A DNA stretch of 64,000 nt from Podarcis vaucheri (Eukaryota). Made by a program: the position numbers and the translations under genes. The stretch's first letter is position 1; each line of letters opens with the position of its first letter. Below, one piece after another: positions 30,768-49,471 of this stretch. Location of the stretch: the NCBI GenBank assembly GCA_965113315.1, contig OZ220368.1; one strand, written 5' to 3'. The notes under the pieces are model-generated. The model did no database searches, was not told where the DNA came from, and was given only the letters and a program-made list of their open reading frames with translations.

Positions 30768-31580
<813 letters not shown>

Positions 31581-36476: not shown

Positions 36477-36527
36477 ATCTGAGGGGCGCAGTCCTTCCTG
36501 GGCAATTTTGTAATGGCCAGGTCTGCT

Positions 36528-37258
<731 letters not shown>

Positions 37259-38758: not shown

Positions 38759-40651
38759 GAAAAATTTAACACCGATTGAGAGAGAGAGGTTTCAGAATGA
38801 GACAGGTTTAACAATGGTTAAGAAAGTGAAATACCTGGGGATTAACATGACAGCAAAAAATGGGAATTCATTTAAAGACAATTACGAAAAATGCTGAAGT
38901 GAAAAAAGATTTAGAAATTTGGTCAAATTTGAAGCTTTCACTGCTAGGCCGTATTGCTGCGATAAAAATGAATGTATTGCCTAGAATGTTGTTTCTGTTT
39001 CAAACATTGCAAATTTTGGACAAAATGGATTGCTTCAAGAAGTGGCAGAGAGATATCTCTAGATTTGTCTGGCAGGGCAAGAAGCCTAGAATAAAATTTA
39101 AAATACTAACAGATGCAAAGGAAAGAGGTGGATTTGCCCTGCCAGACCTTAAACTTTATTATGAATCAGCAGCTTTTTGCTGGTTGAAAGAATGGCTGCT
39201 TCTTGAAAACACAGACATTTTGGATTTAGAGGGTTTTAATAATGTATTTGGATGGCATGCATACTTGTGGTAAGATAAGGTCAAAGCACATAAAGCATTA
39301 AAAAACCGTATTGTCAGGAAAGCATTGTTTAATGTTTGGATAAGATATAAGGACCTACTGGAAAACAAAACCCCAAGGTGGCTGTCACCGATGGAAGCGA
39401 AAGCTCAGAAAAAGCTCAATATGGAGGTCAAATGGCCGAAATATTGGGAAATTTTGGAAGAAGAGGGAGATAGACTGAAATTGCAGAGTTTTGAGAAATT
39501 AAAAAACAAAGTGCGAGACTGGCTTCATTATTATCAGATAATGGAGGCATACAATTTGGACAAGAAAATTGGCTTCCAGGTGGAAAAATCAAAATTAGAA
39601 ACAGAACTGCTAGAACCCAAAACTAAGATTTTGTCAAAGATGTATAACTTGCTGTTGAAATGGAATACACAGGATGAAACGGTGAAATCTGCTATGATTA
39701 AATGGGCACAAGACGTTGGGCATAACATAATGATGGCTGACTGGGAACAGTTATGGACCACAGGTATGAAATTCACGGCATGTAATGCCTTAAGAGAGAA
39801 TATTATGAAAATGATATACAGGTGGTACATGACACCAGTCAAGCTTGCAAAAATCTATCATTTGCCCGATAATAAATGTTGGAAATGTAAAGAAACTGAA
39901 GGCACATTCTTTCACCTTTGGTGGACATGCCCAAGGATTAAGGCTTTCTGGGAGATGATTTATAATGAAATGAAAAGGGTATTTAAATACACCTTTCTGA
40001 AGAAACAAGAGGCCTTTCTTCTGGGCATTGTCGGCCAATTGGTGTCAAAGAAGGACAGAACTTTTTTTATGTATGCCACAATAGCAGCAAGAATACTTAT
40101 TGCAAAGTATTGGAAGACACAAGATCTACCCACTCTGGAAGAATGGCAGATGAAGGTGATGGACTATATGGAACTGGCGGAAATGACTGGCAGAATCCGA
40201 GACCAGGGAGAAGAGTCGGTGGAAGAAGATTGGAAGAAATTCAAAGACTATTTACAGAAATATTGCAAAATTAATGAATGTTAGAATGATGTCAGAATGA
40301 AGTTAAGTGGTTTAAGCAGCAATGTTATAAAGGTGTATGTAAAATGGATCGTTAACAGATGAGAATCCAAAGTTATAATATATTATGTTAAAGGACTAAG
40401 ATAAAAACAAAGAGGGAAAGAAATTGCTGAATTAACTAACTGAATTGGAATACAAAAAAGGGAGGTGTGAGGAGGTCAGGGAAACAAGGAAATGAATGTA
40501 AGGTATGGAAAGACTGATGTATTTTTTTAAGTGTTTTTTATCTTTTTTGTATTTTTTCTTTTATTTTTACTTTTGTCTTTCTTTTCTTCTTTTTTTATTC
40601 ATGTAATTTTTTTTCTTTGAAACCTTAATAAATATCATTTTTTAAAAAAAA
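38759..40651 (+). mobile_element. 5'-truncated L1 LINE (ORF2 3' half, 3'UTR, A tail)
   Basis: VKYLGI, LSLLGRIAAIKMNVLPRMLFLFQ, GGFALPDLKLYY, CCHC knuckle CWKC..TFFHLWWTC; frameshift near 38895 and stop at 39271-39273; AATAAA at 40627 plus A8; TSD GATTTGA. Confidence 0.95.
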
Positions 40652-46652: not shown

Positions 46653-47692
46653 GACACCAATGTTGGAACATTGTGGGAAATTAAACCGGTGGGTGGCTCA
46701 CAGTGGCCAGCAACCTATACAGGGAACAAGTGGGGGGGCAGCAACCGCAGTGGGCCCTCTTGGGGTTTTGGAGGCGCAGTAGCCTGTCCCAAGATGCTGG
46801 ATCCTGCCACAGGCTGTGAACCCAAAGACTTTATTTTACTTAAATGAGTAAAAATACATCCCTGCTACAAACAGTAATAAAAAAAAGTCTCAATGTGCAG
46901 TGCTAATGGACCAGAATCACTTACTGTTTACATCAGTATATACACACTTGAATCAGTGTAGTTATTCCAGATGTTTACTACTGATGGCTTAGCGCCGAAA
47001 TGTTTGCGCATGCTAACATTTCTGAGCCAATGTGTGGCGCTGCTCTTTGACTGAATCCTTATTATGTCTCCTTGGCAGAGGCAGCAAGCCGGCATTGTTT
47101 TGAATCACAGACACTTTGGCAAGATAATCACAGGGCTCCGACACATTGAAGAAGGGAAAAGGTTGTGTTTTCTTTCTTTCCTAATAGAAGATAAGACTTG
47201 GCAAAGGGGAAAAAGTGAAAGCGCAACCGGCTAAGATGTTTTTACTTCTGGGAGAATCTGTATTGCATTGTGCTTGTGGCAGTGAAGCTTCTAACATCGA
47301 CTGAATGAAGTGAGAACGCTCATAAAAATTCCAACTGGTCAAAGAACAAAGCTCAGAGAATATTTGCAGTCCAAATTCTTTCAGGGGGGGGGGGAGGTTG
47401 TCAGTTTGGCTGGGACTGAATCCTCAGGCAAGCTAAAGGCAAGGAGTCCAGAGGCAAGGTGGCTGCAGGAAGGGAACAGAGCAGGCAATGGACTGAGAGA
47501 ACAAGGCTATCAATGGCTTCTAGCAAGGGTAGATGTAGTTGAAATCCACTGCCAGAGCCAGTGAATCACAAATGAAGAGAGTACACCTGGTTGGCTGTTG
47601 TGAGAACAAGATGCTGGACTGGACGGGCCTTTGGCCTGATCCAGTAGACTCTGCTTGTGCCCTTTGGACGGAGGGCCAGGAAGCAAAGTGCA

Positions 47693-48343
47693 TGTGCTGG
47701 GCCTGGGGGTAACCTGAGCAATGCGGTCCAGGTCCAGTCCCGAATCCAAGGGTTCTGTGAGGAGTCAGTCCGACAGGGCCAAGGCAGGACACGAGGCAGG
47801 AAACCAGGCAAGGTCAGGCACAGGATCACAGGCAGGTTCTGGCAAACAGCAACGTTGCTCCTGCAACCTGGGGATGGATCCGACAGCCTTTTATCTCTGA
47901 TGGGGTAACGGCCGGTTCTGATCCCCTGGTGACTTACCTCCCTGTCTCGCCCGAAGGCGAGCACTCCTCCTGCGAGTACTCAGTTCTCTCCTTCTCTCAG
48001 ACTTTCGTCTCTGCAGCTCGGGAGATGTCGGTGGGTTACTAGACCCAGAGGCCGCCTCCGCCTCTCCTGACCGAACCGGTAGTGGAGCAGCTGTAAGTGA
48101 TGGCCCGGCTGAAGGCAATGAGGTCATCCCCACATCTGGAGCCAGGGCAGGCTCAGGCCCCTGACTCGGCACAGCTGGTGCTTCGGCCCAGCTGGTGGAA
48201 CAGGTTGCAGGGGAACCTGTGCAGACTGGGGCTCTTCAGAATCAGGCCCCAGACTCAGTTCAGATTCCGCTTGAGGCTAAGGATCCGGTTCAGACTGAGA
48301 CGACTCTGGTTCCAAGTCCGAGCCCGAGTCCCAGGCCATCACA
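47693..48343 (-). mobile_element. Solo LTR (651 bp)
   Basis: TG...CA ends with inverted termini TGTGCTGGGCCTGGG / CCCAGGCCATCACA; 5-bp TSD GTGCA (47688-47692, 48344-48348); TATA-like GATAAAAG on - strand at 47895-47888; GC-rich compared with flanks. Confidence 0.85.
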
Positions 48344-49471
48344 GTGCAGTTAGTATGGGCCCTAGCAGAGCTGATGTACCTGGACGCACAACTCCCCCAT
48401 CAACTGACCTGGCCATCTTAATAAAGGCAACGCGTTCCAAGAAACAATGAAAGGTGGGGTTAAGGAGCTCTGTTTCACATATATGGAAGAGATAGGGATG
48501 GAGAAGAATTTTGGAAATGGGAGAGTTGGAAACGAACTCCAATTTCAGAAATCACCAGGCCATTAATAGCCAAGTCCAACCTCGGCTCCTAATGGTTCAG
48601 CCCCAGCCTTCTTGCCTCCCAATTTTCCTCCTTCTACTGGGGGAGAAATAACAGCAGCTGAGGCTAAAGCCAAGATATGGAAGCTGCCTTATACCAGATC
48701 AGACCATTGGTCCATCTAGGTTAGGACTGAAGAGCAGCGGTTTTAGACAGCCCTTCCTAGAGGTGCTGTCGATAGAATTTGTGACCCTTCCCTTCCCCAC
48801 AACATGAACGCTGGGGGCTGAAAAAACCCCCAAAACCAACCCTCCCTTCTCATTAGCTAGGAGGAATGAAAGAAAGAAGAACATCTCAAATTTAAGCTAA
48901 CGGCCATTGTCTGTTTTTCTGCAGTCAGTAATGACTTTTGAGCCCAAGACTCATTTTCCAGAAGGAATAATTTTATAAAAACAATGGTTCCTAGATCTGG
49001 AGGGTTCAAGCATGTTTGAATGCTTTCATTTCCGTGAGCTGGAAATGTAGAAAGAGCTTTAGACACCTTCAACTGACACTGTCCCTTAACCAAATTAAGT
49101 CTGGGAAATGTTGGCAGTGCGGGTTTGGAGAATTTCTGGGGAAAGCCGGAAATAATCCCAAGAATACTGAAAGGAAAAAGTCCCTTTTGGTAGGATAGAG
49201 GAGTTTTAAGCATAAAGCTCTCTGATACAAACTACGGAAGTGATAGTAGAAATCTATGTTGTACTTCCAGACTTCGCCACAAGGGGGCAGTTTAAGGAGA
49301 AATGCTCACCAGGCAACTGTCATGGCCAAAGGTCATGATGAGAATGACTTTTAGCACACCAAGAATGAATATAAAGGAGAAGGAGATAGCTGAATTATGG
49401 TGATCATAAAAACCTTTGAGTGGCGATTATTCTGAATCAGGCCAATGTTCCACCTAGTTTAGTAATAAATA

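Follow-up and report, generated by a model that had tools for sequence, protein, structure and literature searches.

A solo long terminal repeat (LTR) of 651 bp lies on the minus strand of the window, the 64,000 nt stretch of Podarcis vaucheri DNA (contig OZ220368.1) analysed here. It has TG...CA ends and the pentanucleotide TGCAC on both sides, which bears out the original prediction of a solo LTR. The features are as follows.

47693..48343, minus strand: solo LTR, 651 bp, TG...CA, assigned to a Tf1/sushi-type Gypsy chromovirus (from the target-site duplication, the copies, the polypurine tract and chromodomain next to a sister LTR, and Pfam)
48344..48348, minus strand: upstream copy of the 5-bp target-site duplication TGCAC (from the sequence)
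47688..47692, minus strand: downstream copy of the duplication TGCAC (from the sequence)
47891..48339, minus strand: decayed U3 reading frame, very probably the Pol/integrase C-terminal tail in full elements (from copy, junction and selection comparisons)
48277..48279, minus strand: premature TAG of the window copy, which closes the first frame after 20 codons
48184..48203, minus strand: 20-nt insertion private to the window copy, which shifts the frame and is absent from three sister copies
47954..47971, minus strand: RRSARL codons, an HMGN-like motif (from the sequence; motif as defined in the available text of PMC12487698)
47932..47937, minus strand: GTAAGT, splice-donor-like, within the frame; the homologous site is apparently used in one Podarcis muralis gene model (P0001)
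47889..47895, minus strand: GATAAAA, TATA-like, overlapping the stop codon and common to all five subfamilies
47855..47864, minus strand: probable RNA start and self-primer; full elements have the 10-nt complement at their primer site, and the window copy has one mismatch to it

Exons of an APCDD1-family gene are found in the window at 41.6 kb, 36527–37258 and 30768–31580 on the minus strand (Pfam APCDDC). The solo LTR is about 6 kb upstream of the first located exon, on the same strand, and is probably in intron 1 of this gene. Two consecutive long frames at 38851–40284 on the plus strand resemble the 3′ part of a LINE ORF2; Pfam gave no match to them at E 0.001. Many copies of a 300-nt SINE-like repeat are also present in the window.

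The U3 ATG is at 48339, LTR position +5, in the context gtgATGg. The original prediction had placed a well-positioned ATG 4 nt inside the LTR end, followed by a single TAG and a frameshift near 48185. The TAG is seen at 48279–48277, and the frameshift corresponds to the 20-nt insertion at 48203–48184. The second frame, a stop-to-stop ORF at 48235–47891 (minus strand), contains SPELQRRKSERRRELSTRRRSARLRARQG; after RRSARL it terminates at a TAA within GATAAAAG, the TATA-like sequence, also as foreseen. The reconstructed length of about 149 amino acids does not hold. The frame of the subfamily is 142 amino acids long, and the extra length is the window copy's own insertion. The frame in this solo copy is likely dead, since it is broken and there is no Pol upstream of it.

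The original prediction regarded this frame as the remnant of an intact ORF, and other copies in the P. vaucheri assembly agree with this. A DNA search (40 of 1594 candidates scored) and a protein search (150 of 5343 candidates scored) were carried out. An open frame of 139–142 amino acids starts at +5 in 19 of the 30 best DNA matches, and an exact 5-bp duplication flanks 20 of the 30. Copies of the window subfamily diverge by about 9.6% (15 compared). A search with an internal piece gave 29 sister loci, about 75% identical to it. Each of the 29 has its ATG at +5, and 20 have an open frame of 108, 114 or 116 amino acids ending ...RRSARLKAR.... A fifth subfamily with a 129 amino acid frame comes from a sample selected by the motif (30 loci examined), in which 14 of the 26 copies with a recognizable start are open through the motif. 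The frame is thus retained in five Podarcis subfamilies at 108–142 amino acids, with RRSARL present in all five. Linker length varies by up to 34 amino acids between them and the RRSAR[LI] string is constant. The window solo LTR, with its 142 amino acid tail, is a member of the oldest subfamily among those seen. RRS[AS]R[LI] does not occur in 173,760 six-frame codons of the flanks of the 30 best copies.

Motif-bearing LTRs lean towards chromosome ends: on contig C17, 21 of 29 are within 25 Mb of an end (p 0.0002), and on C10, 11 of 19 (p 0.05). Of 100 listed matches that keep internal sequence, at least 37 are on the 41 Mb contig C41, which we guess to be a non-recombining sex chromosome.

Ahead of one copy of the window subfamily are the remains of an integrase, then a chromodomain and a polypurine tract. 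The tract and the chromodomain are directly upstream, and therefore the frame is in the sense orientation and within U3; an antisense orientation is excluded. The only internal remnant found for the window subfamily is this decayed integrase-chromodomain, about 75% identical to sister elements. A purine-run pattern before the LTR gave 15 matches, with a true polypurine tract at one place only. Nearby LTR pairs at loci L076–L079 were considered as full elements and are independent insertions. Ten sister loci were extracted with flanks, and five of these are complete elements of 5.6–5.8 kb whose own two LTRs differ at 3–8 sites; four of the five have an exact 5-bp duplication. Pfam finds Gag, protease, RVT_1, RNase H, Integrase_H2C2, rve, SH3_Tf2-1 and Chromo in a related full element, with Chromo at residues 1079–1126 of 1263. 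The complete elements, which the original prediction had sought for classification, thus belong to a Gypsy chromovirus. The related element has the protease, reverse transcriptase, RNase H, integrase order and the C-terminal chromodomain of Ty3/Gypsy chromoviruses; TG...CA LTRs, a polypurine tract before the 3′ LTR and a 5-bp target duplication are all found. An ERV, Copia or Bel/Pao origin is ruled out by its Pfam domains. The Gag-Pol overlap of L114 and L121 is at a heptamer, GGGAAAC, which we take to be a −1 frameshift signal of the PEG10 type. The copy of the 108 amino acid subfamily that was compared has one base different just past this heptamer.

The primer site of full elements is not tRNA-like. 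A 10-nt complement of it is present 30–31 nt past GATAAA in five of six elements (chance about 0.005 each). Self-priming in place of a tRNA primer site is a trait of the Tf1/sushi group in the accessible text of PMC6317226. The priming and the domain set together point to a self-priming Tf1/sushi-type Gypsy chromovirus. The same complement would set the RNA start just past the frame, at 47864 in the window, in keeping with the claim that the frame fills all of U3. With this start, neither a solo LTR nor a 5′ LTR promoter would transcribe the frame, and it would be carried on genomic RNA only by the 3′ LTR copy. No AATAAA or ATTAAA is present in the 14 LTRs checked, from all five subfamilies; Sushi LTRs have been described with a clear AATAAA (PMC3601003, text available in part).

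In 15 of 30 loci a multiple of three bases separates the chromodomain from the LTR ATG; the sole internal junction found for the window subfamily is one of these. Eight junctions are one base short and seven one base long, and these shifts are always in a G run just ahead of the polypurine tract. Genome-wide, among 96 junctions (100 of 128 matches listed, minus four unrelated ones), the in-frame length is the mode, with 48; 23 junctions lack one base, 17 have one extra and eight differ otherwise. Out-of-frame junctions make up half of those assembled, which counts against a Pol-tail fusion. On a tree of the 29 sister loci the shifted copies are scattered (12 changes, against a mean of 12.8 after shuffling), and in contigs of four public runs one-base variants make up 0–5% of summed depth, a rough measure. 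Among the matches listed, six copies in which a substitution interrupts the G run all have the in-frame length; one such copy, of the 129 amino acid subfamily, is shifted nonetheless. In the sole internal junction found for that subfamily, Pol ends at a TGA that overlaps the ATG. At the protein level, P. muralis P0002 (1240 amino acids, an independent gene prediction) has Pol and tail in one chain, and five of the six members of its cluster that pass the chromodomain read on into the tail. The U3 ATG itself belongs to the LTR terminus, TGTGATG. We conclude that the Pol-tail fusion is the working state, and that the shifts arose by slippage, at the time of insertion or later, or are assembly errors. 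Because Pol continues in frame past the chromodomain and polypurine tract, the U3 frame is read as an integrase tail, an assignment that is very probable.

Proteins of other reptiles have the same layout. In a profile search, of whose 8873 hits the best 150 were examined, and in an alignment search (31 hits), a chromodomain, GxxVM and an acidic stretch were found in proteins of Rhineura, Salvator, Crotalus, Naja, Vipera and Anolis, all of these being gene predictions known from protein sequence alone. The Anolis prediction P0168 ends RRSARIAAKQLAD, with RRSARIAAK 7 residues from the end and a linker dissimilar to that of Podarcis. P0084 ends RRSARLAAAH; a metagenome scan for relatives of P0084 found none. 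When the tails are shuffled the motif arises 49 (P0168) and 66 (P0084) times in 200,000. It is present in seven of the 64 single-chromodomain proteins retrieved, five of the seven being from Podarcis. The fish Gypsy integrases P0135, P0146, P0177, P0188 and P0191 also continue past the chromodomain, via RPRGRP, which is presumably AT-hook-like. These fish tails end SPEF, SPEY or SPVF, mostly after a G-rich stretch resembling a polypurine tract. Vertebrate chromoviruses may generally extend Pol into the LTR, the conserved end being a different one.

The tail is charge-polarized. Its N-terminal part has 70–98 residues, a net charge of −12 to −19 and about 20% proline; its end has 38–44 residues, many arginines and a net charge of +7 to +10. 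A structure model (7-sequence alignment, mean pLDDT 63) shows the chromodomain folded, the linker at low confidence and a helical stretch, SPELQRLRAERRREL, immediately before RRSARL, and the acidic tail is predicted to be disordered. Neither the tail by itself nor its exonized form had a match in Pfam, PDB sequences or Atlas. The RRSAR core with a following hydrophobic residue is found as RRSARL in the five subfamilies and as RRSARI in Anolis P0168. The full vertebrate consensus RRSARLSA is not, the next residues being KA, RA or QA. Dsup and Dot5 likewise deviate from SA after the motif (PMC12487698, PMC13347269, both in the portions available). When the last 41 residues were modelled with Podarcis H2A and H2B, the runs scored 0.01, 0.60 and 0.02, controls not being folded, and these scores are given no weight here.

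The reading that we lean towards, with some reserve, is that of an LTR-encoded integrase tail whose RRSARL would hold the integration complex on nucleosomes by binding the H2A-H2B acidic patch. Gag-Pol would be translated through the chromodomain and polypurine tract into U3 of the 3′ LTR. The integrase would then bear a long acidic spacer with an arginine anchor at its end; the anchor would grip H2A-H2B, and the chromodomain would read histone tails or DNA. Presumably the tail is translated and kept on the mature integrase. Binding of RRSARL to the acidic patch is suggested by its likeness to known binders, and such contact, in concert with the chromodomain, may aid retention in the nucleus or the capture of targets.

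RRS is also a generic basic or kinase-site string. The selected job of the tail could be that of a generic basic end, in nuclear import, DNA or RNA contact or as a phospho-site, the HMGN match being incidental. The Podarcis tail end is arginine-rich, with the net positive charge given above. The complete-looking tails of Rhineura P0043 (an amphisbaenian) and of the snakes Crotalus P0095 and Vipera P0128 have an acidic stretch and a basic end with no RRSAR. In addition, the Ty1 integrase has a long, disordered C-terminal half (PMC8487063, as far as its available text goes), the nuclear localization signal of which reportedly doubles as a targeting domain. Yet a generic basic patch would leave the serine, the alanine and the hydrophobic residue unfixed, and the exact RRSAR[LI] is constant over the five Podarcis subfamilies despite their different linkers, and recurs near the C-terminus in Anolis P0168 and P0084. 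We regard the incidental match as rather unlikely.

A separate small protein made from its own ATG, by stop-restart at TGATG or from a spliced or read-through RNA, is improbable. It would be nearest to the original prediction of a stand-alone accessory protein, which is not supported: the frame is upstream of the probable RNA start and continues Pol in frame in the commonest junctions and in database proteins. The +5 ATG is in good context in nearly all copies, and those shifted in one direction (8 of 30 junctions) end Pol at the TGA that overlaps it; this ATG, however, is part of the LTR end, and plant CRM elements likewise start TGATG (PMC3059260, in the text at hand). The shifted junctions are moreover dispersed on the tree and rare in short-read contigs. 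Several Podarcis gene models (P0001, P0003, P0012 and P0103) start from the LTR ATG and run on into other sequence, and may be tail exonizations or prediction artefacts. P0001, from P. muralis, exits the frame at the splice-donor-like site within it; no other database protein was close to the frame by itself. In four RNA runs no joint spliced to the frame was seen, at an internal depth of only about 1–4. In two stranded RNA runs, of which about 12% each was read, sense reads are about 1–4 over the internal region and about 20 over the 3′ part of the LTR; no peaks of RNA starts or ends are listed in the raw reads. The reads show that the family is transcribed, and say nothing on translation of the tail.

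Selection on the frame was estimated from open copies only, at most eight per group. Net dN/dS is 0.21–0.26 between old and young subfamilies (bootstrap upper bounds 0.37–0.45) and 0.20, 0.37 and 0.47 among young subfamilies, the interval of the last pair reaching 1.45; the simple count method leaves transitions and CpG uncorrected, and gives 0.45 already within the old subfamily. The other two sense frames have dN/dS of 1.2–2.8. The antisense mirror frame has 0.14–0.44, as expected of a shadow. In nucleotide alignments made without protein guidance, 10 non-independent pairs differ at 188 first, 150 second and 342 third codon positions (about 1058 sites each). Net length changes between subfamilies keep the frame within it, versus many other indel sizes past the stop. 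The dN/dS below 1 and the frame-preserving indels that the original prediction called for are thus present. Its interpretation is partly supported: U3 does encode a selected protein sequence, acidic in its N-terminal part and HMGN-like at its basic end. A neutral origin of the frame, simply because the LTR is rich in GC and poor in stops, is extremely improbable. The low-complexity, 60% GC sequence of the window LTR might speak for it, as might the fact that the tail by itself belongs to no family in Pfam, PDB or Atlas; it is already largely refuted by a dN/dS far below 1 in this frame and its antisense mirror only, the unguided third-position excess and the frame-keeping length changes.

In the old subfamily the last arginine codon of the motif is CGC in 16 of 30 copies and TGC or CAC in 13, a CpG pattern. 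Solo copies decay at CpG codons, those of the motif included, and therefore selection acted on the element and not on the host. Host domestication of solo copies was rejected, as the CpG codons of the motif decay after insertion.

The favoured reading, an integrase tail with an acidic-patch motif, can be carried further. Squamate, and perhaps more distant, chromovirus integrases may carry a true HMGN-type anchor encoded in U3 in addition to the chromodomain. Between lacertids and anoles the linker would have been replaced, the motif either persisting or arising a second time, and solo LTRs in their thousands would spread a ready-made, splice-competent, chromatin-binding exon through lizard genomes. 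We consider this wider proposal evenly balanced. Little is known of how vertebrate chromoviruses reach and choose chromatin beyond the chromodomain. An acidic-patch motif on the integrase would add a second tether, comparable to foamy virus Gag and MLV p12 except that it is on Pol, and mobile elements would join the short list of carriers of HMGN-like motifs. The U3 is constrained at the protein level as well as at the promoter level, which matters for LTR dating and for the interpretation of gene models that start in LTRs.

HIV nef and MMTV sag are also encoded in U3, and are separate proteins made from their own mRNAs. The lizard frame shares with them its coding in U3, but continues Pol instead. 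Entry of Pol into the LTR is already known from plant chromoviruses. In plant CRM elements Pol extends into the 3′ LTR and encodes a targeting part there (PMC3059260, PMC3605345), and some beet non-CRM chromoviruses also reach into the LTR (PMC3059260, PMC3605345, PMC6317226), as given in the available portions of these papers. A polyprotein frame that enters the 3′ LTR is thus common to both. In CRM group A a CR motif replaces the classical chromodomain, whereas the lizard element keeps a classical chromodomain upstream of the polypurine tract and adds an acidic tail of 108–142 amino acids with an HMGN-like motif and no Pfam match. It also differs in its vertebrate host and in its self-priming Tf1/sushi lineage.

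With the vertebrate Tf1/sushi (V-clade) chromoviruses the element shares Gag, protease, reverse transcriptase, RNase H, integrase, SH3_Tf2 and chromodomain, as well as the 5-bp target duplication and self-priming (PMC6317226, in the sections available). In the literature covered, which excluded Butler et al. 2001 (J Mol Evol), no selected U3-encoded tail in the Tf1/sushi group was found. Neither an LTR-encoded integrase tail in squamates nor an HMGN-like motif in a retrotransposon integrase was found in a scope outside which lie subscription papers, Repbase notes and supplements that may mention the extension. In the accessible text of a paper on LTR structure that covers Sushi LTRs, the term ORF does not occur (PMC3601003).

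RRSAR on the acidic patch has been solved for HMGN2 and HMGN5, and as RRSSR for Dsup, and RRSARI is functional in yeast Dot5 (PMC12487698, PMC13347269, in the available text). RRSARL of Podarcis and RRSARI of Anolis match the five residues resolved on the patch in these sources, and the motif is likewise in a charge-polarized chain, disordered by prediction. The lizard tail differs from the proteins so described in being acidic-first and motif-last, with KA, RA or QA after the motif, and in being part of a retrotransposon polyprotein; it is a putative binder as judged from its residues. The prototype foamy virus Gag CBS and MLV p12 tether the pre-integration complex to nucleosomes via the acidic patch (PMC9040877, PMC11054761); the word retrotransposon is absent from the main text of PMC9040877, as far as it is available. 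These viral tethers, as the accessible text has them, are Gag products, whereas the candidate tether of the lizard element is on the integrase and is encoded by the LTR.
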